Below are positions 3,373-53,596 of a DNA stretch of 64,000 nucleotides, piece after piece. Position 1 is the stretch's first letter, and every line of letters begins with the position of its first letter. The translations under genes and the position numbers were made by a program. This DNA comes from Propionibacteriaceae bacterium. GTDB lineage: Bacteria > Actinomycetota > Actinomycetes > Propionibacteriales > Propionibacteriaceae. Below the pieces are notes generated by a model. It was not told the origin of the DNA. It saw only the letters and a program-made list of their open reading frames with translations, and did no database searches. Location of the stretch: contig JBDHZQ010000001.1 in NCBI GenBank assembly GCA_039811945.1, forward strand, positions 162 through 64,161. The letters are read 5' to 3'.

Positions 3373-3373
3373 C

Positions 3374-5264: not shown

Positions 5265-5333
5265 GCGACCACCTCCTTGTGACACCGCTACGGCGGCACC
5301 CGGACGAACCGGGTGCCGCCGCGCGTGCTCAAA

Positions 5334-7004
5334 CTACTTGACGCTGATGCTCGACATGTCCAAGACGCCGAACGCGTTGACCTGGACGTTCGTCACCTTG
5401 TTGGACCACGCAGCAGGCTGAGTGCGGTACCACAGAGGAGCCGTCGGGAAGTCGTTGGCGAGAATCGCCTCGGCATCCTGGTACAGCTTGTTGGCCTGAG
5501 CCAGATCCTTGGCCGCGGCCGCTTCCTTCAACTTCGCCTCGAACGCGGGGCTGTCGTACTTGGAGTAGTTCGAGCCTGCACCCTTGGCGTAGATCGGGGT
5601 CAGGAAGTTCTCGATGGACGGGTAGTCCATCTGCCAGCCGTTCCGGAAGGCGCCCTTGAGCTCGCCGGCCTTGGCGCGGTTCAACAACGTGCGGAAGTCC
5701 GGCGTGGTCTGCGCGACGCAATCCATGCCGAGGTCGTTCTTGAGGTTGTTGCAGACTGCGTCAGCCCACGGCTTGTGACCGCCGTCCTGGTTGACCGTCA
5801 GGGTGAAGGTGCCCTTGTAACCGCCGGCCGCGTCGTATGCCGTCTTGGCCTTCGCCTTGTCGTACGTGCACGGATCGCCGCACTGGCCCGCCTTGTAGCC
5901 GTCGACGACCGGGGAGACCCAGCCGGTCGCGGGGGTACGGGTGCCGTTGTAGATCTGCTTCGTGATCGTCGCACGATCGATCGACTCCGAGATCGCCTTG
6001 CGGAGCGCAGGGTTCTTGTTGAGTTGCTCATCGGCCGGCGAGAAGGTCATGACCTCGATCACGCCGGCTTCGCGAACGACCGTCCGGTCGGCGCCCAACT
6101 GGGCCTTCCACGCGTCACCGACCAACTGGTCAGGCGGGATCACGTCGGTGAAGTCGATGTTGTTGGCGACGACATCGGTGAAGGCCGCTGCCGGGTCGTT
6201 GTAGATGCGGTACGTGACCTTGTCGACGTGCCCCTTGTTGGCGCCCGTGTATTCGGTGTTCTTTTCGAGCACGATCTCCGTCGCCGTGTTCGACGTCACC
6301 TTGTACGGGCCGCTCGACAATGGCATCTTGCCGTAGTCGGCGTTGGCCGGGTCGGCGAGGTACTTGTCCGAACCAGGAGCGAACGCGGAGTAACCCAGCC
6401 GAACGGGCAGGTTCGACGTCGGCTCGGTCGTCTTGACCGTGAAGGTGTAGTCGTCGACCACCTTGAGACCGGTCATGGTCTTCGCGGCGGGGGCGTGACC
6501 TGTGCAGTCGGTCTTGCCATCCGCGCCAGAGCCACACTGCAAGGCGTCATAACCCTCGATCGGCTCGAAGAAGTAGCTGCCCTCGTGGCCGTTGGGGCCG
6601 TACGCCCCCACGTTCCACGCGTCCACGAAGTTCTTGGCCTTGATCTCGCTGCCGTCGGAGAACTTGTGGCCCTTCTTCAGGGTCACCGTGAAGGTGATGG
6701 AGTCGTCGGTCTTGATGGAGTCGGCCAGGTCGTTCTCAGGAGCGGCAGTCTTCGAGTTGTAGTGGACCAGCTTCGACGTCGTCCAGTCGATGACGTTGCC
6801 GCCACACACCTCACCGGTCATCGAACCGATCAGGGGGTTCTGCGGCGTGCACCCACGGATGATGATGGCGCCGCCATCTTTACCGGCTGCGGTCGCGCCA
6901 CCCGTGGCGCCGGACGTAGTAGTACCGCTACTCCCGCACGCGCTGGCCACGAGGGCGAACGCGACGAGTGAGGCGGCGGCCAGGGGGCGAGTCTTTGCCC
7001 GCAT
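5334..7004 (-). CDS. ABC transporter substrate-binding lipoprotein, family 5 (peptide/nickel type)
   Basis: The ORF track gives 5334..7100. The internal ATG at 7004 is preceded by AAGGAGG and yields a lipoprotein signal, MRAKTRPLAAASLVAFALVASAC. Length and composition are typical of Opp/Dpp binding proteins. It is the first gene of the 5-gene importer operon. Confidence 0.9.
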   Translation of the reverse strand: MRAKTRPLAAASLVAFALVASACGSSGTTTSGATGGATAAGKDGGAIIIRGCTPQNPLIGSMTGEVCGGNVIDWTTSKLVHYNSKTAAPENDLADSIKTDDSITFTVTLKKGHKFSDGSEIKAKNFVDAWNVGAYGPNGHEGSYFFEPIEGYDALQCGSGADGKTDCTGHAPAAKTMTGLKVVDDYTFTVKTTEPTSNLPVRLGYSAFAPGSDKYLADPANADYGKMPLSSGPYKVTSNTATEIVLEKNTEYTGANKGHVDKVTYRIYNDPAAAFTDVVANNIDFTDVIPPDQLVGDAWKAQLGADRTVVREAGVIEVMTFSPADEQLNKNPALRKAISESIDRATITKQIYNGTRTPATGWVSPVVDGYKAGQCGDPCTYDKAKAKTAYDAAGGYKGTFTLTVNQDGGHKPWADAVCNNLKNDLGMDCVAQTTPDFRTLLNRAKAGELKGAFRNGWQMDYPSIENFLTPIYAKGAGSNYSKYDSPAFEAKLKEAAAAKDLAQANKLYQDAEAILANDFPTAPLWYRTQPAAWSNKVTNVQVNAFGVLDMSSISVK

Positions 7005-7241
7005 AGATGAGCCTCCTTGGTTGGGCAAGGTGCCCGTACGGCATTGCACGGGCAGGTCGGGGTGTTCCCCGAGCGATGGCGCCCAACCTATTGCTGTCAA
7101 GCGATTTCAGCCACGGCCCCCGCGCTATGACGGGAAATCGTTGTTCAGCCGTTACCTGACCACACCTGCCGTGTGAGGAGGGGCCCGAGCTTGGACCCAG
7201 GTCTGACGCGCCGCCGTCGACGGAGGGGCAGACTTGCCATC

Positions 7242-8162
7242 GTGGCTCGCTCGGAACTTGTGGTCGACGTCCGCGGCCTGCTTAAGGTGTACGGCTCCCG
7301 CGGTTCGTACCACCGCGCGCTCGACGGGCTCGACCTGGTCGTGCCGTACGGGGGCGTCCATGCGTTTCTGGGTCCCAACGGCTCGGGCAAGACGACCACC
7401 ATCCGGATCCTGCTCGGTCTGACCAGGGCTGACGGCGGCAGCGTGGCGCTGATGGGCGCGTCCGTGCCCGCCGGACTCAGCTCGGTCATGAGTCAGGTCG
7501 GCGCGATCGTCGAATCGCCGCGGTTCTTCGGCGGATTCACCGCCCGGCAGACGCTCGGCCTGCTCGCCGACGCCGCTGGAGCGCCGCGAGCGCGTGTCGA
7601 CGAGTCCCTCGACCGGGTCGGCCTGCTCGACCGTGGCAACGACCGGGTGAGCGACTACTCGCTCGGGATGCGACAACGCCTCGCGATCGCCACGACGCTG
7701 CTCAAGAACCCTCGCCTGTTCGTCTTCGACGAGCCCACCAACGGTCTCGATCCCGAAGGGATTCACGAGGTACGGCAGACCATCCGTCGGCTCGGCGACG
7801 AGGGACACACCGTGCTCCTGTCGAGCCACCTGCTGAGCGAGGTCGAGCATCTGGCCCACCGGGTCACCGTGATCTCCCACGGCCGTGCCGTACGTTCCGG
7901 TGCGCTCTGCGATCTCCTCGTCGGTGATCCGGGCATCTCCGTCGACATCGCGCAGGTCGACCACGCGACGGCCGCACTCGTCGCCGCCGGTTTCGCCGTC
8001 CGACGCTCGGGCCCCCGCTCCCTCGTCGCGACCGGCCCGGAGGCAAGCGCCCCATCGGTGGGGCGAGCACTCGCCACCCACGACCTGTGGCCTGACTCGA
8101 TCGGCCCGCACAGACCCGACCTGGAACAGGCCTACCTTTCGTTGACAGGAGCCGACCGATGA
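7242..8162 (+). CDS. ABC transporter ATP-binding protein (ABC-2 exporter type)
   Basis: Walker A GPNGSGKTT, signature YSLGMRQRL, Walker B LFVFDEPTNGLD. The GTG at 7242 follows GGAGGGG; the track start at 7173 is probably too long. Confidence 0.9.
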   Translation: MARSELVVDVRGLLKVYGSRGSYHRALDGLDLVVPYGGVHAFLGPNGSGKTTTIRILLGLTRADGGSVALMGASVPAGLSSVMSQVGAIVESPRFFGGFTARQTLGLLADAAGAPRARVDESLDRVGLLDRGNDRVSDYSLGMRQRLAIATTLLKNPRLFVFDEPTNGLDPEGIHEVRQTIRRLGDEGHTVLLSSHLLSEVEHLAHRVTVISHGRAVRSGALCDLLVGDPGISVDIAQVDHATAALVAAGFAVRRSGPRSLVATGPEASAPSVGRALATHDLWPDSIGPHRPDLEQAYLSLTGADR

Positions 8163-40385: not shown

Positions 40386-40649
40386 CTAGTCGCGATCGTC
40401 GACGAGGTCGGTCGCGCCCGCGTTGCGGGCCGCGCGCTCGGATTCCAGATGGCGGCGTGCGGCCTCGCGCCGGTCAGGGGTGTCACTGGCTGTGAGGTCA
40501 TCGAGGACGTCAGCGGGCAGCGGGCCACCGGGCAGACGCGGGCTCCGGAGAAGCGGGTCAGGCTTCACATCGGTCGCGGGCAGCTTCGGCCTGGCACCGA
40601 CCTTCGACTTCTTGGTCGGCTTCTTCTTCGGCTGCGGCACTTTCGGCAT
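40386..40649 (-). CDS. Small basic protein (87 aa), hypothetical
   Basis: The ATG at 40649 lies 29 nt after the CHAT stop; the stop lies 11 nt before the glycosyltransferase GTG. Sequence MPKVPQPKKKPTKKSKVGARPKL...RREAARRHLESERAARNAGATDLVDDRD. High GC3. In the track it appears only as the tail of the spurious 326-aa ORF 40386..41366. Confidence 0.45.
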   Translation of the reverse strand: MPKVPQPKKKPTKKSKVGARPKLPATDVKPDPLLRSPRLPGGPLPADVLDDLTASDTPDRREAARRHLESERAARNAGATDLVDDRD

Positions 40650-40678
40650 CGTCACCACGCCTGGCACAGTACGCCCGA

Positions 40679-43090
40679 TCAGCCCGCCAGCCGCCAGGTC
40701 GAGCCCATTGCCACGAAGGGACCGGCTTCGGTCGCGGTCGCTTCGGCGAGCGCGACGTCGCTGGGCCGGCCGGCGGCGAGGCTGGAGTGGTACCGGGCCA
40801 TCACCGACGCCGCCGCGTCGTCTCGGATCGGTGCGACGGCCGCCACGACACAGCGGACGCCCAAGGCCACCAGCGTGCTGGCCAGACCGAGCGACTCCCC
40901 GCCCGGGCGCACCTCTGCCGTACCCGCCTCGCACGCCGACAAGACAACGTGCCCTGCGCTGACGCCGGTGACGGGCAACTCGTGGGCGTACACGTCTCCG
41001 TCGGACATGCGCAGCGACGAGAACAACGGTGAGCTCGGCTGATGCTGACCGTGGGCGGCGACGTGGACGACTTCGGCCTCGTGGAGCGCTGCCACGAGAT
41101 CGGCAGACGAGGCGGTCGGTCCAGGCGACGACGCGGATCCGTTCCAGACCGACAGTACGGCCTGTCGCTCGGTGTCGGCGAAGTCGAGTTGAGGTCCGGT
41201 CAGCACCGCGACGTTCGCCGGACCCGCACCTTGGCGCCCGGCCCACTCGGTCAGCGATCGAGCCACGGTGACGGGAACCCCGCGCAGACTCGGCAGCATC
41301 CCCCAGGGCAGTTGGTTGACCGCGTAGCCGCCGGCGATCACCACGCCACCGGAACGGAATCTCCACGGGCGGATCAACAGGTCGTCGAGGCGACCGAGTG
41401 ACTCGGCCAGAGATCGCTCGACCACCGGCCGTAGGTCGCCCAATTCCGGGTGCGCCGCGACTCTCAGATCGGCCCGAGCCCGCCGGACGATCTCGGTGAC
41501 AGCGGCCGCCTCACCGATCCGGACGACCCGCTTGCGGCCGCCCACGACGGCGATGCCATGCAACGTCGGACCGTGGGAGAAGAACCAGACGAAGTCCCGA
41601 TCGGCGGCGGCGACCTCCCCGATCGACTCGGTGACGCCGGGCAGGATCGAGGCATCGCCCGATGCCTGGGCGTGGCCGAGTCCACGCACGGTCAGACGTC
41701 GCCGGAGGCGCCGCATCTCCTGGCGCCAGGCGGGTACGGCGGGCGAATCGGGCTCGTCGCGGACCCGTTGCCCCAACATCCGGAGCGTCTGGGTCAGGTC
41801 GGCGAGCCCCGGATCGTCGGGTGGCCTTACGATGGGCAGCGCCTGGCCGGTCGAGCGCCACCGTTCCAGGGCGGTCAGCAACGGGATCGGGCCTTGATTC
41901 AGCGCGATTCCGAGGTCGAGACGGGCCAGCCTGATCGTGAGCACGCTCCGCGCCGCGCGCGAATCCAGAGCAGCGCTGCCGGCCTGGCTGGCGCCAAGTT
42001 CCGCAGCCGCCCGCATTAGACGGGCTCGCGCCGATCGAACCTTGTTCTCGGCCAGGTCGGTCAGAACGGCGGCATGGGCATGTCGCATCCGCAACACCAA
42101 ACCGAGTTCGGAAGGCGGGTACGACTCGAGGGCCTGCCTTGCCATGGTCGGCTCGCCGATGCGCGTGTAGGCCTCGGCCGCCACGACCAGGCTGCGCGCC
42201 TGCACGTCGACGTCACCGCGCCCGGCAGCGTCCTCGGCCAGTTCGACCGCCGATCGGGAGACGCGTGCCAAGCCCCTGGACAGCATCAACTCGCAGTCGA
42301 GCACGGTGGCCTGAGCCCGTACGGCCAAGCCGTGCGCCCCCAGCCGACGCATCCGGTCCCGACTCGACCTGGCCGCTGCCAATGCCGCCGGGATGTCGTC
42401 GGCGAGCCGGAGCACCCGGGCCCGCTCCAGGTCGATCTCGGCCATGACCAACGGCTCCTGGCGAGCTCGGCACTGCGCCGCCGCTCGATCCAGAGTGTTG
42501 AGTGCCTCGTCCACGAGGCCGGCCTCGTGCAGCACCCGGCCCAAGTCGAGCAACGACGGTGCCCGTTCGACGTCGACGTCCATCTCCTGGGCCGCGGTGA
42601 TGGCAGAGATGGCTCCGGGCAGGTCACCGGTCAGATACCGAGCGAAGCCGGCGTTGTGCCGAGCCATGAACTGCTGTCGGTCGAATCCGCCGCTCTCGGC
42701 CAGCGCTGCGGCTTCGTCGAAGGACGCGGCCGCTTCGGCGGCTCGACCCAGGGCCAGCAACACGTTGCCTCGGTTGAGCTGCAGAGAACAGCGTTCGAGC
42801 AGGGTGAACCAGGCACGTTCCTGCCGGGTCAGGAGCAGTTCGGTCGAGGCCGAGGCGAGGTCGCCGCTCCGGCCGTGAACGAGGCCCGACTGCACCCGGC
42901 AGCGGGCGCGAAACTCCGGGTCCAACCCGGCCAGTTCCGTCGCGGCGTCGAGGTACGCCTCTGCCGCGCCTCGGCCCTGGCCGGACATGGCCACGTAGGC
43001 GAGCGTCAACAGGCAGGCGATCCGGACCACGTCGACGTCGCGGGTGGCGGGCTGGTCGAGAGGCGGAAGCAGGCTGAGGGCAGCCTTCAA
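40679..43090 (-). CDS. TPR-repeat CHAT-domain (caspase-like) protease
   Basis: 803 aa from the TTG at 43090. N-terminal ~500 aa of TPR-like helical repeats. C-terminal CHAT domain with the His/Cys dyad HVAAHGQHQ ... VVLSACEAG. The reading frame stays open and protein-like up to the TAG at 43196-43198, so the true start is probably upstream (see finding). Confidence 0.88.
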   Translation of the reverse strand: MKAALSLLPPLDQPATRDVDVVRIACLLTLAYVAMSGQGRGAAEAYLDAATELAGLDPEFRARCRVQSGLVHGRSGDLASASTELLLTRQERAWFTLLERCSLQLNRGNVLLALGRAAEAAASFDEAAALAESGGFDRQQFMARHNAGFARYLTGDLPGAISAITAAQEMDVDVERAPSLLDLGRVLHEAGLVDEALNTLDRAAAQCRARQEPLVMAEIDLERARVLRLADDIPAALAAARSSRDRMRRLGAHGLAVRAQATVLDCELMLSRGLARVSRSAVELAEDAAGRGDVDVQARSLVVAAEAYTRIGEPTMARQALESYPPSELGLVLRMRHAHAAVLTDLAENKVRSARARLMRAAAELGASQAGSAALDSRAARSVLTIRLARLDLGIALNQGPIPLLTALERWRSTGQALPIVRPPDDPGLADLTQTLRMLGQRVRDEPDSPAVPAWRQEMRRLRRRLTVRGLGHAQASGDASILPGVTESIGEVAAADRDFVWFFSHGPTLHGIAVVGGRKRVVRIGEAAAVTEIVRRARADLRVAAHPELGDLRPVVERSLAESLGRLDDLLIRPWRFRSGGVVIAGGYAVNQLPWGMLPSLRGVPVTVARSLTEWAGRQGAGPANVAVLTGPQLDFADTERQAVLSVWNGSASSPGPTASSADLVAALHEAEVVHVAAHGQHQPSSPLFSSLRMSDGDVYAHELPVTGVSAGHVVLSACEAGTAEVRPGGESLGLASTLVALGVRCVVAAVAPIRDDAAASVMARYHSSLAAGRPSDVALAEATATEAGPFVAMGSTWRLAG

Positions 43091-43195
43091 CGACCGGGCG
43101 GCCCGAGCGGGTCGACCGGCCGAGACCTCGGCCAGGCCCCGTTGCCGGAGCGCCTTGGCTTGTTCGAGGACGGGTTCGACGATGCTTCCCTCCAG

Positions 43196-43645
43196 CTACA
43201 GGTCGACGGCCGGCGTGATCACCGGCCGGTGGTCGTTCCTCCTCACCACGAAATGGGTACGGCCACGTGGCACGTCCGCGACGGCGAACCGGCCACCGTC
43301 GTCAGCAACGGCGTTCAACGTGGCACCTTCGGCCACGATCTCGATTTCCGCCCCCGGGGCCGTGACCCACCCGTCGACGCGAACCTTCCGGTGTTGCGGC
43401 ACCGTGGTCACCAGCAGGCGAAGTGACCCGCACGTGAACGTGATCGAGTCGGTCTCGTCCTCGCCTCGCACACCGGCCAGCGAGTTCCTCGTCAACTCGG
43501 CGACCTCCGCTTCGAGCGCTTGCACGGAGAGCGCGAACGTGACCCGGTCGACCAGCCCGGTCGGCATCGGGTCGAGGCGGGAGTACATGCGCTGGAGCTG
43601 GGTGAGGATCGTCGCGTCGACGTCGTCTAACAGATCGTCGTACAT
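43196..43645 (-). CDS. Hypothetical 149-aa protein (candidate anti-sigma / adaptor)
   Basis: Acidic helical N-terminus (MYDDLLDDVDATILTQLQRMY) plus a C-terminal beta-rich segment resembling a carboxypeptidase-regulatory-like fold (DDGGRFAVADVPRGRTHFVV). No TM segment. Starts 3 nt after the sigma-factor stop, with GGGAGGA inside the sigma 3' end. Confidence 0.7.
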   Translation of the reverse strand: MYDDLLDDVDATILTQLQRMYSRLDPMPTGLVDRVTFALSVQALEAEVAELTRNSLAGVRGEDETDSITFTCGSLRLLVTTVPQHRKVRVDGWVTAPGAEIEIVAEGATLNAVADDGGRFAVADVPRGRTHFVVRRNDHRPVITPAVDL

Positions 43646-43648
43646 GGG

Positions 43649-44221
43649 TCAGTCCTCCCAACGTGGGTCGGCGGCCAGCGCGGCCCTGAGCTTGGCCAGG
43701 CAACGGCCCCGAGTCGGCCCGATACTGCCCACGGGCATGCCCAGGCTCTCGGCGATGGCGGCGTAGTCGGGGGTGGGGGAGAAGGCGATCACGCGGAGCA
43801 GGGCCTGGCAGCGTTCCGACAGCGTCGCAACGTGGCGCCAGAGCACCAGTTGACTCTCGGCCAGGACGGCGTCGTCTTCGGGAGTTTCGGTGCTGACCGG
43901 TTCGGGCAGCCCGGAGTCGGGTTCGGCTTCGCGACCGTTGAGGCGGAGCAGCCTCCAGGTCTCGCGCTTGACGGTGACGACCAGCCAACTCGTCACGGCT
44001 CGGGGCTCGGTGATCGCATCGGCAGCGTCGACGAGCCGGAGCCAGGCCGTCTGGATGGCGTCCTCGGCGACGGAGGTGGTCGCGTGTTGAGACCGTGCCG
44101 TGTGCCACAACAGGGGCGAGAGCATCTCGACGAGGTCACCGAGCCGGGACCGATCCCCCTCCCGATAGTCGGAGAAGGCGGCTGCTGCTCGGGCGCCGAG
44201 CGTCTCGGTCGCCGTACTCAT
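43649..44221 (-). CDS. ECF-type RNA polymerase sigma-70 family factor
   Basis: 190 aa. Region 2 (AEDAIQTAWLRLV, VVTVKRETWR) and region 4 HTH (YAAIAESLGMPVGSIGPTRGRCLAKLR). An ATGA overlap couples it to the S8 protease gene. Confidence 0.88.
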   Translation of the reverse strand: MSTATETLGARAAAAFSDYREGDRSRLGDLVEMLSPLLWHTARSQHATTSVAEDAIQTAWLRLVDAADAITEPRAVTSWLVVTVKRETWRLLRLNGREAEPDSGLPEPVSTETPEDDAVLAESQLVLWRHVATLSERCQALLRVIAFSPTPDYAAIAESLGMPVGSIGPTRGRCLAKLRAALAADPRWED

Positions 44222-45750
44222 GCCACCGGGCGCGCCAGCGCCCCCCCGAGTACGGCGTCGATCGCCTGCCAGCCCCGGTCGACCAAGCCGTCGGCCGTGA
44301 TGTCGTCGGTCCCGATGTCGATGAGCGCCTGGGCGAGTTCGCCGGCGAGCACCGGGGCGGCGAACGACGTACCCGACCAGACCCCGAACCCGCCGGAGAA
44401 GTCGTCCCGGTCGATCGTCGCTCGGGGCCGGGTGTCGGGGCTGACATCGGCCGCTTCCAGGGTCGGCTGAGCTGCCGCGTTCTGCTGGTCAGGCAGAGTG
44501 GAGACGACCGCTCCGCCCGTGCGATAGGTGGTGACCCAGGTGCCGGCGTTGGAGAACAGGCAGACGGTCGCGTTGTTGGGGTTGAGGGCGCCGACGCTGA
44601 CCAGGGGCAATGCCGTACGCCGCAAACCCGTCACTTGACCTGCCAAACCGGCGGGCAGCATGGGGCGGGTCGTCGCGTCGTTACCGGCTCCGGCGACGAC
44701 CAGCACGCCTGCCTCCCCGAGGTCGCGCATGACCTGCGCGACGGTCGTATCGGTCAGTTGGTCGTCGGGCTTCTCGTGGTAGTAGCCCAGCGAGAGCGAC
44801 AGGACGTCGATGATGCCCGCCGGGTCCCGGGCCGCGATCGCCGCCCGCTGCTGGGTGAGCAGTTGGTCGAGGAGTCCCAGCAGTTCGCTTTCCAGCAGGT
44901 AGCCGTCCGACCGTACGACCGAATGCGCCACCAAGCGGGCTGCCGGGCACTTCTGCCTGACGATCCCGGCGATGAACGTGCCGTGGCCCGCGATCCGATC
45001 GAGAGAACCGAGCAGAGGATCACTGACACCTGGTTCGTCGTCGGAGATCGGAGAGCCGGTGACGACGACCGAGCCGGGCACGGCTGCGATCATCCGCGCG
45101 TCACCGTCGGCTCGGGGGAACCAGGGATGACGACCGATGCCGGTGTCGGGCATGACGACCACGGGGGGCCTCGCGGGCACCGTCGCGGTCAGCGCTGGAT
45201 CGGCCATGACGACGCTGACGGGCATCTTGCCGCCCGATCCCGGGCGCGCGAACTCCGACGCCCCGGCCCCGATCGAATCCCAATAGGGAATGGAATCCCA
45301 ATAGGGGATCGAATCCCAGTACGGGATCGAGTCCCAGTACGGGATCGGCGCCACGATGTGGTCCAGCTCGAGGGACTCGGCGACCTCGGGGGATGCCGCG
45401 GCGATGTGCTGCAAGGCGACCCAGGCATCGGGCGGCGAGGTCAGCGTGTCGCCGATCGGCGCCAGGTCGAGCGGGGTCACCCGGCTCGTGGTCGGCTGCG
45501 GCGCGACCGCGTCGAACTCGCGCTGGGCCGTCCGTTCTTCGGGGGGCGTTGGGCTGGCACGCCAGCCGAGTTTGGCGAGGGCGTCAGTCGCCTCGGCGGG
45601 CAGAACTCGAGGCGGCCCGATCTCAGCCCCGTCGGTCGGGGCCGGCGCGGCATGGCGCCAGAGCAGTCTGTTTGCGACGTATGCGGCGCGTCGCGGCGCA
45701 ACCGATCCACGGACCACAGCCGTCGCAGGATCGAGCACCCTGATGTCCAT
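44218..45750 (-). CDS. S8 family (subtilisin-like) serine peptidase, no signal peptide
   Basis: Catalytic triad motifs VMPDTGIG (Asp), GHGTFIAGIV (His) and GTSFAAPVLAG (Ser). The ATG at 45750 (MDIRVLDP) sits 5 nt after GGGAGGG; the track start at 45831 is probably too long. The N-terminal ~200 aa have unknown function and contain (IPYWDS)x4. Confidence 0.88.
   Translation of the reverse strand: MDIRVLDPATAVVRGSVAPRRAAYVANRLLWRHAAPAPTDGAEIGPPRVLPAEATDALAKLGWRASPTPPEERTAQREFDAVAPQPTTSRVTPLDLAPIGDTLTSPPDAWVALQHIAAASPEVAESLELDHIVAPIPYWDSIPYWDSIPYWDSIPYWDSIGAGASEFARPGSGGKMPVSVVMADPALTATVPARPPVVVMPDTGIGRHPWFPRADGDARMIAAVPGSVVVTGSPISDDEPGVSDPLLGSLDRIAGHGTFIAGIVRQKCPAARLVAHSVVRSDGYLLESELLGLLDQLLTQQRAAIAARDPAGIIDVLSLSLGYYHEKPDDQLTDTTVAQVMRDLGEAGVLVVAGAGNDATTRPMLPAGLAGQVTGLRRTALPLVSVGALNPNNATVCLFSNAGTWVTTYRTGGAVVSTLPDQQNAAAQPTLEAADVSPDTRPRATIDRDDFSGGFGVWSGTSFAAPVLAGELAQALIDIGTDDITADGLVDRGWQAIDAVLGGALARPVA
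45271..45342 (-). repeat. 4 x 18-bp in-frame tandem repeat encoding (IPYWDS)4 inside the S8 peptidase gene
   Basis: Plus strand reads gatcgaatcccaataggg / aatggaatcccaataggg / gatcgaatcccagtacgg / gatcgagtcccagtacgg. Two of the units use the rare codons ATT and TAT. Confidence 0.95.
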
Positions 45751-46072
45751 GCGACCCTCCCGTCGGCGCCGCCAGCCTAGGAAACGACCGACTTCCCTGA
45801 CTAGAGCCGCCAAGCAGAGGTTCTGATACATCCGTGCATCGATTGGCGTTGTTCTCTCACCCGTTGGACGGAATCGACCTCAGGCGGCTTTGAAAGTACG
45901 GTTCACCCCATGCGTTCAGCCACCGCCCTCGTGACCCGTCGTCACGTGGATTTCCAGCGCGTGCTGAGCCACTTGTGTCGCGTTCTCTGACGCGCCCCCT
46001 ATCCAGCCGGGCGTCACCGCCGGGCAGTTCTTTGCCTCGGCGCTGCGCCGATCCAGCCCAGAGGACACACCA

Positions 46073-47779
46073 GTGACGACCACCGACCAACCGTCGGCCA
46101 GCCGCGTACGGCCGCCGCGCGAAGACCGCTCCAACGGCCAATGGCTGGTGGACGGCCGTACACCCCTCAACCACAACGAGGAATTCAAGGCCGAGGACAA
46201 CCCGCTCAACGTACGGCGACGGATCGAGGAGATCTACGCCAATCAGGGGTACGGCTCCATCCCCACCGACGACGTGCACGGACGGTTCCGCTGGTGGGGT
46301 CTGTACACCCAACGCCGACAGGACATCTCCGGTAGCCGTACCGCGTCGTTGGGCCCGGACGAGCTGAGCGATGCGTACTTCATGATGCGGATCCGACTCG
46401 ACGGCGGCGCCCTCACCACCGACCAGGTGAGAGTCATCGCCGACATCTCCACGACGTTCGCGCGCGACACCGCCGACATCTCCGACCGTCAGAACATCCA
46501 GCTGCACTGGGTACGGATCGAGGACGTGCCGGAAATCTGGCGACGCCTCGAAGCCGCCGGCATGCAGACCACCGAGGCCTGCGGCGACTCCCCTCGGGTC
46601 ATCCTCGGGTCGCCGGTCGCCGGCATCGCGGCCGACGAAATCATCGACCCGACGCCCGTGATCCGCGAGATCGTCGACACCTACATCGGCGACCCCGAGA
46701 TTGCCAATCTGCCCAGGAAATTCAAGACGGCGGTCACCGGTCATCCGAGCCTCGACGTCGTGCACGAGATCAACGACGTCTCCCTGGTCGGCGTGGTGCA
46801 CCCCGAGCTGGGTGCCGGGTACGACCTGTGGGTCGGCGGCGGCCTGTCGGTCTCCCCTCGCCTGGCCGAACGGTTGGGCGTCTTCGTGCGGCCCGAGGAA
46901 GCGGCCGAGGTCTGGTACGGCGTGATCCGCATCTTCCGCGACTACGGATACCGCCGCCTGCGGGCGAAGGCCCGCCTCAAATTCCTCCTGGCCGAGTGGG
47001 GCGCGGCCAAGTTCCGCCACGTGCTGGAGACCGAATACCTGGGCCGGGCGCTGGCCGACGGCCCCTCCCCCGCCGTCCCCAGCCAGCCTGGCGACCACCT
47101 CGGCGTCCACGAGCAGAAGGACGGTTCGTCGTACGTCGGTTTCGCCCCGACCGTGGGACGGGCCTCGGGTACGGCATTGGCCGCGATCGCGGACCTGGCC
47201 GAACAGGCCGGGTCGAAACGCATCCGGCTGACCCCCCACCAGAAGCTGCTCGTGCTCGACGTGGCGCCGGATCGCGTCGACGCGCTCATCCGCGGCATGG
47301 ATGCCCTCGGCTTCAGCGCCCATCCGAGCCCGTTCCGGCGTCACACGATGGCCTGCACGGGGATCGAGTACTGCAAGCTGGCGTTCGTCGACACCAAGGA
47401 CACCGCCAAGGCGACGATCTCTGCGCTCGAGCAGCGACTGTCCGACGTGACCCTCGACGTACCGATCACGCTCAACATCAACGGCTGCCCCAATTCCTGC
47501 GCACGGATCCAGACCGCCGACATCGGGCTCAAGGGCCAGATCCTGACCGGCGCGGACGGCGAACCCGAGTTCGGATTCCAGGTGCATTTGGGCGGCGGAC
47601 TGGCCTCCACCGAGCGTGAGGAAGCGGGGTTGGGCAAGACCGTACGCGGGTTAAAGGTGACCGCCGACAACCTTCCCGACTACGTGGAACGGGTGACTCG
47701 CCGCTACCTCGACGACCGGATCACCGGCGAGTCGTTCGCGGTCTGGGCGCACCGCACGAGCGAGGAGGCGCTGCGATGA
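46073..47779 (+). CDS. sirA: Ferredoxin-dependent sulfite reductase (NirA/SirA family)
   Basis: 568 aa. Two nitrite/sulfite reductase repeats with the siroheme/4Fe-4S Cys cluster (ACTGIEYCKLA ... NGCPNSCAR). First gene of the sulfate assimilation operon. Confidence 0.92.
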   Translation: MTTTDQPSASRVRPPREDRSNGQWLVDGRTPLNHNEEFKAEDNPLNVRRRIEEIYANQGYGSIPTDDVHGRFRWWGLYTQRRQDISGSRTASLGPDELSDAYFMMRIRLDGGALTTDQVRVIADISTTFARDTADISDRQNIQLHWVRIEDVPEIWRRLEAAGMQTTEACGDSPRVILGSPVAGIAADEIIDPTPVIREIVDTYIGDPEIANLPRKFKTAVTGHPSLDVVHEINDVSLVGVVHPELGAGYDLWVGGGLSVSPRLAERLGVFVRPEEAAEVWYGVIRIFRDYGYRRLRAKARLKFLLAEWGAAKFRHVLETEYLGRALADGPSPAVPSQPGDHLGVHEQKDGSSYVGFAPTVGRASGTALAAIADLAEQAGSKRIRLTPHQKLLVLDVAPDRVDALIRGMDALGFSAHPSPFRRHTMACTGIEYCKLAFVDTKDTAKATISALEQRLSDVTLDVPITLNINGCPNSCARIQTADIGLKGQILTGADGEPEFGFQVHLGGGLASTEREEAGLGKTVRGLKVTADNLPDYVERVTRRYLDDRITGESFAVWAHRTSEEALR

Positions 47780-48501
47780 CGATCACGACCCACGGCCCCG
47801 GCCGTACCCGCACCGCGGACGAACTGCGCGCCCTTGCCGACGAGGCGTCGGTGCGATTCGGCGAGGCATCAGCCGACGAGGTGTTGGCCTGGGCAGCCGA
47901 CACCTTTGGTACGGCATTGGCGGTCGCCTGCTCGATGGCCTCCGACACCGTGGTTCCGCACCTGGTCAGCCGTTTCCAGCCCGGTGTGGACGTGTTGTTT
48001 CTCGAGACGGGGTACCACTTCGTCGACACGATCGGCACCCGGGACGAGCTGGGGTACACCGTGCCCGTGACGATCGTCGACGTCCGGCCGGCCCAGACGG
48101 TCGCCGAGCAGGACGCGACGTATTCGGAGAAGCTCTACTCCCGCGATCCCGGCCTGTGCTGCCAACTGCGGAAAGTCGACCCGATCAACGCCGAACTGGC
48201 CACGTACGAAGCGTGGGTGACCGGCGTGCGCCGGGAGGACAACGCGCTGCGTGCCAACACAGGCACCGTCGAGTGGGATGCGAACCACCAGATGGTGAAG
48301 ATCAACCCGATCGCGGCGTGGACCTTCGACGACGTGTTGTCCTACGCGACCGAGCACCGAGTGCCGGTGAATCCGCTGCTCGCCGACGGCTACCCGTCGA
48401 TCGGCTGCGAACCCTGCACCCGGCGGGTGGCTCCGGGAGAAGACCCACGGGCCGGCCGATGGGCCGGGCTCGGCAAGACCGAATGCGGGTTGCACGTATG
48501 A
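47776..48501 (+). CDS. cysH: Adenylyl-sulfate (APS)/PAPS reductase, CysH family; Cys pairs suggest the APS-reductase type
   Basis: 241 aa. ECGLH catalytic tail (KTECGLHV), plus the CC (PGLCCQLRKV) and CxxC (SIGCEPCT) pairs typical of Fe-S APS reductases. This fits a CysN without an APS-kinase domain. Confidence 0.9.
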   Translation: MTITTHGPGRTRTADELRALADEASVRFGEASADEVLAWAADTFGTALAVACSMASDTVVPHLVSRFQPGVDVLFLETGYHFVDTIGTRDELGYTVPVTIVDVRPAQTVAEQDATYSEKLYSRDPGLCCQLRKVDPINAELATYEAWVTGVRREDNALRANTGTVEWDANHQMVKINPIAAWTFDDVLSYATEHRVPVNPLLADGYPSIGCEPCTRRVAPGEDPRAGRWAGLGKTECGLHV

Positions 48502-49397
48502 CGCGGCAGTTGACCCAGCTCGAGGAGCTGGAATCCGAGGCGATCCACATCTTCCGCGAGGCGGTCGGCGAGCTCGAACGGCCGGTGCTGCTGTTCAGCG
48601 GCGGCAAGGACTCGGTCGTCATGCTGCACATCGCGCGCAAGGCGTTCTGGCCCGGCCCGGTGCCGTTCCCGTTGCTGCACGTGGACACGGGACACAACTT
48701 CCCCGAAGTGCTGGCCTATCGCGACGAGCAGGTCGCGAAGCTGGGCTTGCGGCTCGTCGTGGCCAAGGTTCAGGACTACATCGACGACGGCCGGCTGCTC
48801 GAGCGGGCCGACGGGACCCGAAATCCCTTGCAGACCCAGCCGTTGCTGGACGCCATCGCCGCCCATCGGTTCGACGCCGTATTCGGCGGCGGCCGCCGTG
48901 ACGAGGAGAAGGCCCGGGCCAAGGAGCGTGTCGTCAGCCTGCGCGACGAGTTCGGTCAGTGGGACCCGCGCAACCAGCGCCCCGAGCTGTGGACGATGTA
49001 CAACCCCCGGCATCGCCCCGGAGAGCACGTGCGGATCTTCCCGCTCTCGAACTGGACCGAACTCGACGTCTGGCGCTACATCGCGGCCGAGCGGATCGAA
49101 CTGCCCGACCTCTACTACGCCCACACCCGTGACGTGTTCAGTCGCGACGGCATGTGGCTGGCGGTGGGCGAATGGTCCCGTCCTCGCAACGGCGAGCAGG
49201 TCGAGTCGAGGATCGTGAGGTACCGGACGGTCGGCGACATGAGCTGCACGGGAGCCGTGGAATCGAGCGCGGCCGACGTGACTGCCGTACTCGCCGAAGT
49301 CGCGGCCACCCGGATCACCGAACGCGGCGCGACCAGGGCCGACGACCGCCTGACCGAGGCCGCCATGGAGGACCGCAAGAAGGAGGGGTACTTCTGA
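48498..49397 (+). CDS. cysD: Sulfate adenylyltransferase subunit 2
   Basis: MTRQLTQLEELESEAIHIFRE...LLFSGGKDSVVMLH (PP-loop). An ATGA overlap couples it to cysH. The track ORF 48156..49397 is over-extended. Confidence 0.95.
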   Translation: MTRQLTQLEELESEAIHIFREAVGELERPVLLFSGGKDSVVMLHIARKAFWPGPVPFPLLHVDTGHNFPEVLAYRDEQVAKLGLRLVVAKVQDYIDDGRLLERADGTRNPLQTQPLLDAIAAHRFDAVFGGGRRDEEKARAKERVVSLRDEFGQWDPRNQRPELWTMYNPRHRPGEHVRIFPLSNWTELDVWRYIAAERIELPDLYYAHTRDVFSRDGMWLAVGEWSRPRNGEQVESRIVRYRTVGDMSCTGAVESSAADVTAVLAEVAATRITERGATRADDRLTEAAMEDRKKEGYF

Positions 49398-50674
49398 TGG
49401 GGACTTTGCTCCGGCTGGCCACCGCAGGCAGCGTCGACGACGGCAAGTCCACGCTGGTCGGGCGGTTGCTGCACGATTCCAAGTCGGTGTTGGCCGACCA
49501 GCTCGAAAGCGTGGCGCGGGTCTCGGCCGAACGCGGCCTCGGCCAGGTGGATCTGGCCTTGCTCACCGACGGTCTGCGCGCCGAACGAGAGCAGGGCATC
49601 ACGATCGACGTGGCGTACAGGTACTTCGCGACACCGAAACGCACGTTCGTGCTCGCCGACTGCCCGGGACACGTCCAGTACACGCGCAACACCGTGACCG
49701 GCTCGTCGACCGCCGACGTGCTGGTGCTCCTGGTCGACGTACGCAAGGGAGTCCTGGAACAGACCCGGCGCCACCTGGCCGTTGCCGCCCTGCTGAGGGT
49801 GCCGTACCTCGTGTTCGCCGTGAACAAGATCGACCTGGTGGGGTACGACGAGGCCGTGTTCCGGCGAGTGGCCGACGAGTTGGCCGTGGTCGCGCACGAT
49901 CTCGGGGTCTCGCACGTCGAGAGCGTTCCGGTGTCGGCCTTGGTCGGCGACAACATCGTCGAGCCGTCGGCGCACACTCCTTGGTACGGCGGGCCGACCC
50001 TGTTGGAACTGTTGGAGGACCTGCCGGCCGCCGACGATCCGGCCGAGGAGCCGTTTCGCTTTCCCGTTCAACTCACGATCCGGCCGAACTCGGACTATCG
50101 GGGGTACGCGGGGCAGGTCGCCTCGGGCGTCGTCAGCGTCGGAGATTCGGTCGTGGTGTTACCCTCGGGCCGGACGACCACGGTGGTCGGCATCGACACC
50201 GCCGACGGGCCGCTGACCGAAGCGTTCGCACCGCAGTCGGTGACCCTCCGACTCGCCGACGAGGTCGACATCACGCGCGGGGATCTGATCGCGGCGGCCG
50301 ACGCTGCACCGGTGCCGACCCAGGACTTGCACGGGCTGGTCTGCTGGCTCTCGGATACGGCACTGCGACCCGGGGCACGGGTGCTGGTGAAGAACACGAC
50401 CCGGACGGTGCAGGGCATCGTTCGGGAGATCCACGGCCGGCTCGACCTGGACACGATGACGCCCGTGGCCGCCGAGGGTCTGACGTTGAACGACATCGGG
50501 CGGGTGACGGTACGGCTCGCGTCCCCGATCGCGGCCGAGAATTACACCGAATCCCGCAAGACTGGGGCGTTCCTGCTCGTCGATCCGCAGATGGGGAGCA
50601 CGCTGGCCGCCGGGATGGTACGTGCACCCCTCGCCGAAGATCCCGACGCCGACGCGTTGACATGGGCCATCTAG
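49397..50674 (+). CDS. cysN: Sulfate adenylyltransferase subunit 1 (GTPase; no CysC fusion)
   Basis: MGTLLRLATAGSVDDGKSTLVGRLL (G1), DCPGH (G3), NKID (G4). About 425 aa. The start overlaps the cysD stop (TGATG). Confidence 0.95.
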   Translation: MGTLLRLATAGSVDDGKSTLVGRLLHDSKSVLADQLESVARVSAERGLGQVDLALLTDGLRAEREQGITIDVAYRYFATPKRTFVLADCPGHVQYTRNTVTGSSTADVLVLLVDVRKGVLEQTRRHLAVAALLRVPYLVFAVNKIDLVGYDEAVFRRVADELAVVAHDLGVSHVESVPVSALVGDNIVEPSAHTPWYGGPTLLELLEDLPAADDPAEEPFRFPVQLTIRPNSDYRGYAGQVASGVVSVGDSVVVLPSGRTTTVVGIDTADGPLTEAFAPQSVTLRLADEVDITRGDLIAAADAAPVPTQDLHGLVCWLSDTALRPGARVLVKNTTRTVQGIVREIHGRLDLDTMTPVAAEGLTLNDIGRVTVRLASPIAAENYTESRKTGAFLLVDPQMGSTLAAGMVRAPLAEDPDADALTWAI

Positions 50675-50801: not shown

Positions 50802-52268
50802 ATGACGCGACCGAACCTCGTCTTCATCTTGGCCGACGACCACGCTCCCCACGCCATCTCGGCGTACGGGAGCGTGGTCAATGCCACGCCCCAGATCGAT
50901 CGCCTGGCGCGCGAGGGAGCAACGCTCACCTCGACGTACTGCACCAACTCGATCTGTACGCCCTCGCGAGCCACGATCCTGACCGGCACGTACAGCCACG
51001 TGAACGGTGTGCCGGGCATTTTCGCCGAGATGGACTACCGGGTTCCCACGTACGTCGATGCCCTGCACGAAGCTGGTTACGCCACTGCCATCTTCGGCAA
51101 GTGGCACCTCGGCGAGTCGGTCGGCGCGCAGCCGCGCAACTTCGACGCCTGGCGCGTGTTCCCGGGACAGGGCGACTACGTCGACCCGGTGATGATCGGG
51201 CCGGACGGCGAGGAGGAGGTACGGGGGTACGCGACCGACATCGTCACCGATCTGAGCCTGGCGTGGCTCGAACAGCGGGACCACGGGCAGCCCTTCGCGC
51301 TGATGATCCACCACAAGGCCCCTCACCGGCCGTGGCTGACCGACGCGGCCCACGCCAACCTGTACCCGGTGGGCACGATCCCCGAACCGGCCACGTTCGG
51401 CGACGACCACGCCACCCTGAGCCAAGCCGTACGCACCGTGACCATGAGCATCGCCGACGACTTGACCGAACGTGACGTCAAAGAGCCGACTCCGCCAGAA
51501 CTGGAGGGTCCGGACAAGACGGCTGAGCGAGCCAGCTGGAAGTACCAGCGCTACATGCGCGACTACCTCGGCTGCATCGCCTCGATCGACGACAACGTGG
51601 GCCGGGTGCTGGATTACCTGACTGCCGCCGGCCTGGACCGCGACACGATCGTGGTCTACTGCTCCGACCAAGGCTTCTTCCTGGGCGACCACGGCTGGTT
51701 CGACAAGCGGCTCATGTTCGAGCAGTCGCTGCAGATGCCGGTGCTCGTGCGGTGGCCGGCGGAGATCCCCGCGGGCGTACGGGTGGACGCCATGATCACC
51801 AACGTCGACTTCGCCGCCACGTTCCTCGACCAGTGCGGCCTGGATCCGGCGGCGGCCCTTCCGATGCACCAGGGGCGGAGCTTTCGTCACCTCTTGCGCG
51901 GTGAAGAGGTCGAGGGATGGCCGGATTCGATGTACTACCGGTACTGGGAACACGACGACCCTCACCATCACGTACCCGCTCACTACGGGGTCCGTACCCG
52001 AACCCACAAGCTGATCCGCTACTACGGCGCACCGTTGGGAGTGCCGGGCTCGTCGGACCGGATCACACCCGACGAATGGGAGATGTTCGACCTGGTCGAG
52101 GACCCGCTCGAACTAGTGAACGTCTACGACGATCCGGGGTACGCCAGTGTCCGCCTCAGCCTGGAGGCAGAGTTGGCCCGACTGCAAGACCAGTACGGCG
52201 ACCTGCCCTACGCGGGACCCGGAACGTGGCACCCGGCCTGGGGTGAGGGCTTCCAACAGCACAGTTGA
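50802..52268 (+). CDS. Sulfatase (Cys-type, formylglycine-dependent family)
   Basis: 488 aa. NLVFILADDH and the FGly motif CTPSRATILTG. No signal peptide from the ATG at 50802. The frame is open and coding-like for a further 141 nt upstream (see finding). Confidence 0.9.
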   Translation: MTRPNLVFILADDHAPHAISAYGSVVNATPQIDRLAREGATLTSTYCTNSICTPSRATILTGTYSHVNGVPGIFAEMDYRVPTYVDALHEAGYATAIFGKWHLGESVGAQPRNFDAWRVFPGQGDYVDPVMIGPDGEEEVRGYATDIVTDLSLAWLEQRDHGQPFALMIHHKAPHRPWLTDAAHANLYPVGTIPEPATFGDDHATLSQAVRTVTMSIADDLTERDVKEPTPPELEGPDKTAERASWKYQRYMRDYLGCIASIDDNVGRVLDYLTAAGLDRDTIVVYCSDQGFFLGDHGWFDKRLMFEQSLQMPVLVRWPAEIPAGVRVDAMITNVDFAATFLDQCGLDPAAALPMHQGRSFRHLLRGEEVEGWPDSMYYRYWEHDDPHHHVPAHYGVRTRTHKLIRYYGAPLGVPGSSDRITPDEWEMFDLVEDPLELVNVYDDPGYASVRLSLEAELARLQDQYGDLPYAGPGTWHPAWGEGFQQHS

Positions 52269-52440
52269 CGTGCAGCTCCGGACTCAGCGTGTCACGAGCG
52301 AGTGGGACGTTCAGCCCAGTGGAGACGGTCGTGGTCGGCCCGAACTCGGCGGTTTGTGAATCGGGACTCCGAGGTGAAACGGATCCGAGGTGCCAGGCGT
52401 AGACAGGGTGAAGTACCCGAACGAACCGAAGGGAAACGCC

Positions 52441-53064
52441 ATGTCCACCACCCGCGCACTGTCCCTGATCGCCCTCGTCGTCTTGGCCGGGTGCGCGACC
52501 ACAACCGCCTCGCCGGCCGGGTCACCCTCGGCCCCGATGACCTCCCCCGTTGCGACGTCGGCCGCTTCGACGGCATCCGGGGCCGCGACGACCGCCCCGG
52601 CCAGTGTGCTCGCGGCGAACGACCGGCTGACCACCGCCGGCATCGGCGCGATCCAGATCGGCGCCTCGGTCACCGCGCTCGAGGCGCTCGGAGCGGCCGC
52701 TCCAGCCGACACCTGCGAGAACGCGGTCGGGCCGAGCAAGGCTCTGGCAGCTGAAGGTGTGAGTTTCCACGTCGACTACGAGACCAAGCGCGTGTCCCAG
52801 GTCGAACTCACCACTCCAAAGCGCTCGACGCTCGACGGGGCACGTGTCGGCATGCTCGTGTCTCAGGTGAAGGCGCTGTACGGCACCAAGGTCGCCGTGG
52901 CGACCGTGTCGGTGATGCAGAACCAGCGTCAGCAACTGGTCATGCGGGCCGATGGAGCGATGATCGTCTTTCTCACCGACGCCCCGGTCAGTGACTCGGC
53001 CAGCGTCGTCACTATCGTGCTGAAAGCCGACAACGGGTCCGCGGTGGTGACACAGGACTGCTGA
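52441..53064 (+). CDS. Putative lipoprotein, function unknown
   Basis: The internal ATG at 52441 gives MSTTRALSLIALVVLAGCATT (lipobox). Confidence 0.6.
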   Translation: MSTTRALSLIALVVLAGCATTTASPAGSPSAPMTSPVATSAASTASGAATTAPASVLAANDRLTTAGIGAIQIGASVTALEALGAAAPADTCENAVGPSKALAAEGVSFHVDYETKRVSQVELTTPKRSTLDGARVGMLVSQVKALYGTKVAVATVSVMQNQRQQLVMRADGAMIVFLTDAPVSDSASVVTIVLKADNGSAVVTQDC

Positions 53065-53098: not shown

Positions 53099-53596
53099 AT
53101 GGACGAGCAGGCATTCGACGCGTTCTACTCGTCGTCGTTCGCCCCGATCGTGTCGCAGGTAGCAGCCATGTGCGGTAGCCGTACAGAAGCCCAAGACTGC
53201 GTGCAGGAAGCGTTCATCCGGGCTTGGGACCACCGGAGAGACCTGGACCGCGCCTCATCCCCGGAAGGGTGGGTACGGACGGTCGCCACTCGGCTGGCGG
53301 TCAGTCGGTGGCGCCACCGCTCCCTGGACAGCCGCGCGGGCGACCGGTCGGTCGCTCCCACCCCACCCAGGGAGCCCTCGCCTGACCGGGTCGCGCTCCA
53401 ACGGGCCATGGCCACGCTCCCCTTCGAGCAGCGGCAGGCGCTGGTGCTCTACCACACCGCTGATCTCGACATCGGGACGATCGCGGCCGAACTCCGGACC
53501 AACCCCAACACAGTCAAGACGAGACTCGCCCGTGGGCGGGCGGCGCTGGCCAAGCTCTTGGCCGAGCCCGACGAGGAGGCGAGCCATGTTCGATGA
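53099..53596 (+). CDS. ECF-type RNA polymerase sigma factor
   Basis: 165 aa. Region 2 (AQDCVQEAFIRAWDHR) and region 4 (LPFEQRQALVLYHTADLDIGTIAAELRTNPNTVKTRLARGR). Confidence 0.9.
   Translation: MDEQAFDAFYSSSFAPIVSQVAAMCGSRTEAQDCVQEAFIRAWDHRRDLDRASSPEGWVRTVATRLAVSRWRHRSLDSRAGDRSVAPTPPREPSPDRVALQRAMATLPFEQRQALVLYHTADLDIGTIAAELRTNPNTVKTRLARGRAALAKLLAEPDEEASHVR

Follow-up and report, generated by a model that had tools for sequence, protein, structure and literature searches.

How extracytoplasmic function (ECF) sigma factors of group ECF54 are switched on can be put to the test on a locus in 64,000 nucleotides of DNA from a Propionibacteriaceae bacterium (assembly GCA_039811945.1, contig JBDHZQ010000001.1, positions 162 to 64,161), a stretch that is called the window in what follows. 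On the minus strand, four co-directional and tightly coupled genes encode, in this order, an S8 subtilase, an ECF sigma factor, a 149-aa protein (p149) and a protease that combines tetratricopeptide repeats with a CHAT domain (TPR-CHAT). We found that this cassette is a real, conserved four-gene operon of actinobacteria; the direct observations are its gene content and order, the conserved catalytic residues of the two proteases, its promoter motif and a conserved peptide repeat in the subtilase. The interpretation that we prefer, and that we regard as evenly poised between right and wrong, is that the locus forms an autoregulated ECF54 sigma module controlled by cytoplasmic proteolysis. The four genes are the following.

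44218..45750, minus strand: S8 subtilase gene, 510 aa (Pfam Peptidase_S8, 1.9e-12)
43649..44221, minus strand: ECF sigma gene, 190 aa (Sigma70_r2, 2.2e-08; TIGR02937, 1.6e-14)
43196..43645, minus strand: p149 gene, 149 aa (weak CarboxypepD_reg match in the C-terminal half)
40679..43195, minus strand: TPR-CHAT gene, about 834-838 aa if read from just after the TAG stop of p149 (CHAT, 1.7e-24)

An earlier reading made from the DNA letters alone (the sequence-only reading) had described four packed minus-strand genes, and the open reading frames (ORFs) and junctions are as it described them: the S8 and sigma genes share an ATGA overlap, a 3-nt gap separates the sigma and p149 genes, and the TAG stop of p149 is in frame with the CHAT reading frame. 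The motifs that it had named, DTG, HGT and GTSxAAP (here GTSFAAP) in the subtilase and HVAAHG and LSACEAG in the CHAT protein, are all present. The single in-frame TAG between p149 and CHAT also exists as it was reported, but it is a matter of chance, since p149/CHAT junctions are in frame in 15/44 orthologous loci. Read-through or a p149-CHAT fusion over the TAG was ruled out for the same reason, 15/44 being what chance predicts, and no fused p149-CHAT protein was found among the 150 best representatives of the p149 family. Moreover, none of the four products has a signal-like N-terminal segment or a transmembrane segment, again as had been claimed; the sole 19-residue stretch with a Kyte-Doolittle value above 1.6 (2.06, CHAT residues 769-787) lies in the catalytic core beside Cys755. 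Judged from their sequences, all four products look cytoplasmic.

A p149-family profile retrieved 58 loci from species-representative genomes, in which the window proteins were then searched by tblastn. All 58 loci belong to Actinomycetota, including Intrasporangium, Terrabacter, Humibacillus, Phycicoccus, Pedococcus, Nostocoides, Pseudactinotalea, Nocardioides and Propionicimonas, and a Euzebya locus was obtained through a separate look-up; the named homologues and loci, from Propionibacteriales, Micrococcales, Jatrophihabitans, Pseudonocardiales and Euzebya, are likewise all from this phylum. The four genes lie near each other in 56/58 of these other actinobacterial species genomes. The order S8, sigma, p149, CHAT is found in 54/58, across several orders of Actinomycetes and in Euzebya, while two loci have the order sigma, p149, S8, CHAT, so that the suggested co-occurrence of the four genes proved to be that of a conserved unit. 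Two further loci (L038 and L059) carry only the sigma-p149 pair, behind the same promoter motif; the fetched flanks, of about 10 kb but about 4 kb on the downstream side of L038, contained neither S8 nor CHAT. Their neighbours encode an amidase, a META-domain protein, a C26 peptidase and a GT87 protein, together with a prephenate dehydratase (PDT) gene. Three loci (L028, L032 and L055) carry two whole cassettes in tandem, each with its own promoter pair. Flanking genes vary between lineages; in Intrasporangiaceae, the cassette adjoins the PDT gene in several genera, and this synteny points to vertical inheritance. The cassette proteins of the window itself fall into single-member protein clusters.

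The gene context of the locus matches a group that has been described before. The conserved neighbours of ECF54 encode carboxypeptidase, subtilase and CHAT domains, and proteolytic control has been proposed for the group (PMC8999054, citing Casas-Pastor 2021 and Huang 2015). Casas-Pastor 2021 (PMC7826278) lists ECF54 among 16 groups without a canonical regulator and places a 4Fe-4S protein near it. The window resembles this description in its actinobacterial ECF sigma factor, in the lack of a canonical anti-sigma factor (no Pfam or NCBIfam anti-sigma family matched any cassette protein) and in its subtilase, carboxypeptidase-regulatory-like and CHAT neighbours, which are all in the window and lie near each other in 56/58 species genomes. 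No feature of the window conflicts with the group description. Because this distinctive gene context matches, the locus appears to be an instance of the actinobacterial ECF54 module. The window's nearby 4Fe-4S candidate is a sulfite reductase (NIR_SIR, 46073..47779) that is divergent from the operon; no sulfite reductase was found within 10 kb in the 58 other loci. No Geodermatophilus protein, the genus of the ECF54 reference SFT86700.1 (Geodermatophilus amargosae), is among the 120 best sigma homologues listed.

As a gene set, therefore, the cassette is already catalogued and not new. The sequence-only reading had known of no characterised system with this composition, a view that gives way to the published ECF54 context (PMC8999054 and PMC7826278), while its idea of a proteolytic route to sigma activation coincides with the hypothesis published for ECF54 (PMC8999054). 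Our literature search found no experimental work on ECF54. For this experimentally uncharacterised group, what is new here is the GTATCA-N16-CTC promoter, the architecture of p149 and the repeat-bearing zymogen junction of S8. The promoter motif, the p149 architecture with its invariant arginine and the S8 repeat junction were found neither in PMC8999054 nor in PMC7826278, a comparison that did not extend to Huang 2015.

Two conserved elements were identified upstream of the S8 gene.

45803..45829, minus strand: ECF-type promoter motif GTATCA-N17-CTCT, 53 nt upstream of the S8 start codon
45773..45780, minus strand: second conserved box CTAGGCTG, about 25 nt downstream of the CTCT element

The search pattern GTATCA-N15-19-CTCH had one match in the window, where 0.43 are expected by chance per 64 kb. 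Across the fetched loci, the GTATCA/CTC motif stands upstream of the first cassette gene in 57/62, and its spacer is 16 nt in 84/99 instances. Where the sigma gene comes first (L057-L059), the motif sits upstream of sigma instead. Its geometry is typical of ECF promoters, which suggests autoregulation, and we take GTATCA-N16/17-CTC as the presumed autoregulatory promoter of the operon. A 537-aa version of the S8 ORF was rejected as spurious because its ATG overlaps the conserved -35 element of this promoter. The second box recurs upstream of many orthologues, equivalently placed, in the form C(A/T)CTA(G/C)GCTG, and it could be a TAnnnT-type (housekeeping-type) -10 element or an element of the 5′ untranslated region or leader.

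The sigma factor consists of the sigma2 and sigma4 regions only and has no regulatory extension, with Sigma70_r2 and TIGR02937 covering residues 28-182. Of the four proteins, this one is the most strongly conserved (45-71% identity in the 58 loci). Its two sole cysteines, Cys138 and Cys174 in region 4, are invariant in 120/120 homologues and might serve as a site for redox chemistry or metal binding. The operon is flanked by a divergently transcribed sulfate-assimilation operon.

The small partner p149 is predicted to be built from three parts.

Amino acids 8-55: helical hairpin
Between hairpin and sandwich: disordered linker
Amino acids 66-149: seven-strand beta-sandwich

In the AlphaFold2 (AF2) model, which has a mean predicted local distance difference test score (pLDDT) of 88, the helices span residues 8-24 and 31-55, and pLDDT falls below 50 only at residues 57-61. 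Within this disordered linker, Arg60 (codon 43466..43468) is invariant in 59/59 sequences and is followed by Gly, Ser or Ala. The CarboxypepD_reg match in the C-terminal half (4e-04) is below the curated cut-off. Translation of p149 is coupled to that of sigma in essentially all loci, where the two genes overlap or lie 1-4 nt apart; the pair also persists in L038 and L059, whose fetched flanks contain neither S8 nor CHAT. The family comprises 653 representative clusters at E<=1e-10, nearly all of them stand-alone proteins of 150-185 aa; the closest relatives are 61-63% identical, and the named ones come from Propionibacteriaceae and from metagenome-assembled genomes (MAGs) of unclassified Actinobacteria. 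Apparent natural sigma-p149 fusions in two loci (L009, L045) were discarded as frameshifted MAG sequences because their sigma4 motif is scrambled.

A profile of 71 p149 homologues searched against all PDB chains gave nothing relevant and no anti-sigma factor, and Foldseek with the p149 model returned only generic beta-sandwiches, none at E<=0.001. The likeness to Csx30, Csx31 or anti-sigma folds that the sequence-only reading had wished to see examined thus found no relevant sequence match and no fold beyond such sandwiches. Class II anti-sigma factors such as NepR and CnrY are short helical inhibitors of ECF sigma factors. p149 resembles them in its two-helix N-terminal module of about 50 aa, encoded directly downstream of sigma with coupled translation; unlike them, it carries an additional beta-sandwich, and its profile matched no anti-sigma factor in the PDB. 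Because of its gene position, its translational coupling and its shape, we propose p149 as a candidate soluble anti-sigma factor that would also be a protease substrate with a built-in cleavage site.

The S8 subtilase is composed as follows.

Amino acids 1-135: propeptide-like N-domain
Amino acids 136-159: repeat linker
Thereafter: catalytic domain
45274..45345, minus strand: tandem repeat IPYWDS x4 (18-nt unit), at the junction of propeptide and catalytic domain

Its catalytic residues are Asp202, His256, Asn357 (oxyanion) and Ser462; Asp, His and Ser are conserved in 56/58 orthologues and the oxyanion Asn in 57/58. The AF2 model (pLDDT 78.6, predicted TM-score 0.85) shows a beta-alpha-beta N-domain (residues 1-135) and a subtilase core, with residues 138-165 disordered (pLDDT <50). 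The best Foldseek matches were unautoprocessed pro-subtilisins (3whi, 2z2z, 2e1p and 3afg), aligned over both domains in about 480-510 columns, so the subtilase looks like a zymogen with a pro-subtilisin-like fold in the predicted structure. Its N-domain and catalytic domain superpose in prediction on the unautoprocessed forms of pro-subtilisin E and pro-Tk-subtilisin, with the triad intact. Pro-subtilisins and intracellular subtilisins, S8 zymogens whose N-terminal propeptide is inhibitory, normally have a single autoprocessing site, whereas the window's subtilase has tandem identical, lineage-specific peptides there; it further differs from other pro-subtilisins in being cytoplasmic, as far as can be predicted, and in being embedded in a sigma-factor operon. 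The suggestion that the subtilase acts as an upstream sensor or activator was not upheld: nothing shows a sensor role, and the protein looks like a zymogen. At least 1621 database clusters match it at E<=1e-10, of 8000 candidates scored.

Tandem Repeats Finder reported the repeat with a period of 18 and 4.3 copies. The window's four IPYWDS copies are identical as protein, and the 5/18 nucleotide columns that vary among them do so only synonymously. All full-length S8 orthologues but one have, at the same place, 3-9 copies of a lineage-specific unit of 6-10 aa, among them GYWGGIG, PFWGGH, GYGSGV, GYLQGV, PYWDPV, VGQWGS, NPIEHS and GVGETH. Codon variants within the repeats of 46 loci comprised 189 synonymous and 8 non-synonymous cases. 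The same unit is retained in species whose S8 proteins are only 63-81% identical, and related pairs show concerted changes of the unit, such as Y/W between L047 and L051 in all six copies and A/M between L036 and L039. Copies that are identical in amino acids yet divergent in DNA indicate selection on the peptide, and not just slippage-prone DNA. Among the best 120 database homologues of the subtilase, 46 have at least three copies of a 5-11-aa unit, others two or one, and a few none that can be recognised. Taken together, the family carries 1-9 copies of a 5-11-aa unit at this junction.

The CHAT protein matched TPR_12, TPR_2 and TPR_9 besides CHAT in Pfam. Its caspase-like dyad is His715 (41051..41053) and Cys755 (40931..40933) in the numbering of the 838-residue protein, and about 51 orthologues cover this region, 51 with the His and 50 with the Cys. 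The catalytic residues of both proteases, which the sequence-only reading had pointed to, are thus conserved across the 58 species orthologues wherever they are covered. The start of the gene deserves a comment. The CHAT frame at 43091-43195 (minus strand), the 35 codons after the TAG, contains no ATG, GTG or TTG start; the first canonical start is TTG 43090, where public gene calls begin, truncating the first TPR helix. CHAT orthologues align from residues 2-10 of the stretch between the TAG and TTG 43090, which argues that the start is probably non-canonical, either ATC at 43183 (GGAGGG-N4-ATC) or CTG 43195, with ATC the likely one.

Most other loci carry a twin GTATCA-N16-CTC motif on the opposite strand, about 60 bp upstream and pointing away from the cassette (for example L029 7711-7736 and L013 7625-7650). 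The window has the single motif only, with no twin divergent promoter. In Euzebya, a PROP2 actinobacterial MAG and Nocardioides gansuensis, the twin motif or a further minus-strand motif faces a multi-gene operon that encodes a trypsin-like/Nal1_C protein of about 480-550 aa, an APH/TCAD9 kinase, HopA1 and a LanC-like protein.

L002 2603-7606, minus strand: operon facing the divergent motif
L005 ~2800-7715, minus strand: operon facing the divergent motif
L054 ~3138-7564, minus strand: operon facing the divergent motif

In the Terrabacter group, the divergent motif faces a PG_binding_1 protein. Homologues of the trypsin-like/APH/HopA1/LanC operon or of the PG-binding protein were searched for in the window and none was found. 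It is possible that this operon is part of the sigma regulon. The twin divergent promoter could give rise to a small RNA or a long leader.

How these parts would work together can be proposed in five steps, in which we infer who binds whom, who cuts what and what signal sets the process off. First, p149, made in step with the sigma factor, would hold it inactive through the two-helix hairpin. Second, a protease would cut the linker at Arg60, before a small residue, and the split between hairpin and beta-sandwich would free the sigma factor or destabilise the inhibitor; the TPR-CHAT protein is the likelier protease for this site, because many clan-CD enzymes cut after Arg. Third, the subtilase, zymogen-like in its predicted fold, would be made in inactive form, with short identical peptides kept so by selection at its junction. 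Fourth, these units may be the recognition or cleavage sites for autoprocessing of S8 or for the CHAT protease, which would connect S8 and CHAT as a cascade and determine the activation threshold. Fifth, the free sigma factor would transcribe its own operon from the conserved promoter motif in positive feedback, and in other lineages it might also drive the divergent promoter with its lineage-specific cargo. Should the cascade exist, sigma activation would here follow a protease route that runs entirely in the cytoplasm; this route would be widespread in Actinomycetota, parallel to Craspase-Csx30-RpoE and to DdvA-DdvS, and of independent origin. The locus offers concrete handles in a promoter for reporters, Arg60 of p149, the catalytic residues of the two proteases and a repeat junction that can be altered.

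Several points weigh against this proposal. The p149 hairpin has no detectable similarity in sequence or fold to any solved anti-sigma domain, and in PMC7826278 ECF54 is listed without a recognisable anti-sigma factor, with a caution that neighbours may be targets and not regulators. Two species (L038 and L059) retain sigma and p149 without adjacent proteases. Some S8 family members among the best 120 homologues have one copy of the unit or none recognisable, and the unit itself varies widely between lineages (GYWGGIG, NPIEHS, GVGETH and others), which is awkward for one conserved protease specificity unless enzyme and site co-evolve. Finally, membership in ECF54 was assigned from gene context.

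The alternative that survives best, which we consider unlikely although it has to be taken seriously, is that the proteases are outputs: the sigma factor would be controlled by transcription, by redox at its Cys pair or by a distant partner, and S8, CHAT and p149 would be effectors of a stress response or of quality control. All four genes stand behind one sigma-type promoter and would be at least targets, and Casas-Pastor 2021 (PMC7826278) cautions that the neighbours of ECF genes may be regulators or targets, which context does not distinguish. The invariance of Cys138 and Cys174 in 120/120 homologues suits a control site within the sigma factor itself, and the loci that keep sigma and p149 without adjacent proteases (L038, L059) fit as well. 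However, sigma and p149 are translationally coupled and strictly paired, as sigma factors and their anti-sigma factors typically are; the p149 linker, disordered and with an invariant Arg, joins two folded modules and resembles a processing site; and two cytoplasmic proteases that carry regulatory parts, a propeptide in one and a TPR array in the other, suit signalling better than bulk proteolysis.

The repeat junction also admits a different explanation, which we hold to be improbable, namely that the locus produces peptides. The subtilase would then be a multi-copy precursor whose 5-11-aa units are intracellular or exported signals, or products akin to ribosomally synthesised and post-translationally modified peptides, maybe sensed by the TPR array of CHAT. 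Kexin-type S8 enzymes excise tandem copies of alpha-factor, and the TPR domains of RRNPP and arbitrium receptors bind peptides of 5-10 aa. Purifying selection holds the units of one protein identical while they diverge between lineages, as in multi-core precursors and pherotypes; they lie exactly at the subtilase processing junction, and a TPR protein is always co-encoded. Yet the locus offers neither an export signal nor a transporter, modification enzymes are missing from most loci, a single copy or none is found in some homologues, and the units are not set apart by flanking cleavage motifs. A relay that joins this idea to the proteolytic cascade is, in our estimate, a long shot: activated S8 would release 5-11-aa units, the TPR array would bind them (free or still attached), and CHAT would cut p149 at Arg60 and free the sigma factor. 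TPR array and peptide would co-evolve in such a relay like a pherotype receptor and its peptide. If true, it would be a new route of sigma control, with proteolytically generated intracellular peptides as messengers in bacteria.

The sequence-only reading had seen in the locus a possible counterpart of the Csx29-Csx30-RpoE arm of type III-E CRISPR systems, and here analogy and homology have to be separated. The Craspase arm (Cas7-11, Csx29, Csx30, Csx31, RpoE) resembles our locus in that it, too, encodes an ECF-type sigma factor together with a TPR-CHAT protease and a small partner, and in the idea, only proposed here, that cleavage of the partner frees the sigma factor. It has Cas7-11, an array and an RNA trigger, all of which our locus lacks, whereas our locus has the additional S8 zymogen, a housekeeping setting and signs of vertical inheritance. 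p149 is unrelated to Csx30 and Csx31 in sequence and fold. The CHAT protein scored 22.2 bits against the Csx29 model NF041237, whose cut-off is 300, and its matches to Csx29 chains in the PDB were marginal (E about 0.004-0.01) and confined to about 116 residues of the catalytic core. The analogy of logic thus stands and the homology does not. In Myxococcus xanthus, the ECF sigma factor DdvS is paired with DdvA, a single chain that combines an N-terminal zinc-binding anti-sigma domain with a transmembrane helix and, in the periplasm, a TPR-CHAT module whose active site is incomplete, and cleavage by CHAT has been proposed as the first step of release (PMC11506125). The window likewise links an ECF sigma factor to a TPR-CHAT module. 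Unlike in DdvA, however, CHAT is here a protein of its own that lacks an N-terminal transmembrane segment and whose Pfam matches are confined to CHAT and TPR families, and the candidate anti-sigma factor is p149. We regard the resemblance to both systems as one of logic, not of descent.

The same resemblance underlies the idea of an anti-phage or abortive-infection system. Its parts correspond to Csx29, its small substrate and RpoE; among solved structures, the Csx29 chains come closest to the CHAT core, which also has a weak match to BovA; DdvA-DdvS is a TPR-CHAT anti-sigma pair able to control defence genes (PMC11506125); lineage-specific units and tandem cassettes (L028, L032, L055) resemble fast-evolving conflict systems; and in three lineages the divergent promoter faces the trypsin-like, APH/TCAD9 kinase, HopA1 and LanC operon. 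As had been claimed, the 64 kb hold no cas gene and no array: no ORF exceeds 1000 aa, and no CRISPR-like array was found, the sole short-range direct repeat being the 18-nt repeat inside the S8 gene. PADLOC identified no defence system in the window, only the weak BovA match to the CHAT core, and the neighbours are housekeeping genes, with no sign of a defence island. That an infection-triggered TPR-CHAT protein cuts its partner and frees the sigma factor, or that the proteases are toxic effectors, is very doubtful, given the lack of cas genes, arrays and a PADLOC system in the window, the housekeeping neighbours and a PDT-gene synteny that points to vertical inheritance, a p149 unrelated to Csx30 and Csx31, and a Csx29 score of 22 bits against a cut-off of 300.

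Beyond the proposed proteolytic sigma module itself, some features of the locus and its surroundings were noted. One short ORF follows the CHAT gene.

40386..40649, minus strand: 87-aa Lys/Pro-rich ORF downstream of the CHAT gene

It had no Pfam or NCBIfam match and no homologue in the 58 related loci; its GC content at third codon positions (0.82) is coding-like, it forms a single-member cluster, and it is lineage-specific and probably outside the module. The sulfite reductase, a glycosyltransferase and this 87-aa ORF were rejected as parts of the module, none being conserved in the 58 loci. Downstream of the twin motif, many loci have conserved hairpins that are rich in GC and carry G-rich loops (CAGGGG, GGAGGGG); an Rfam search for them gave no match apart from tRNAs. 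The twin motif is duplicated along with the cassette in L028, L032 and L055, and in L005 a second copy of the motif precedes an 86-aa ORF that resembles the N-terminus of the trypsin-like protein.

The neighbours of the cassette in the window encode sulfate assimilation, a sulfatase, a transketolase, transporters, enzymes of sugar and amino-acid metabolism and a second ECF sigma factor. The divergent sulfate-assimilation cluster (46073-50674, plus strand) comprises the sulfite reductase, a PAPS reductase, a CysD-like PAPS_reduct protein and a CysN-like GTPase, and is followed by the sulfatase (50802-52268). A 224-aa protein without a Pfam match (52390-53064, plus strand) is encoded upstream of the second ECF sigma factor (53099-53596, plus strand), a 165-aa protein with Sigma70_r2 and r4_2 that is unrelated to the sigma factor of the cassette and lies about 7 kb from it.

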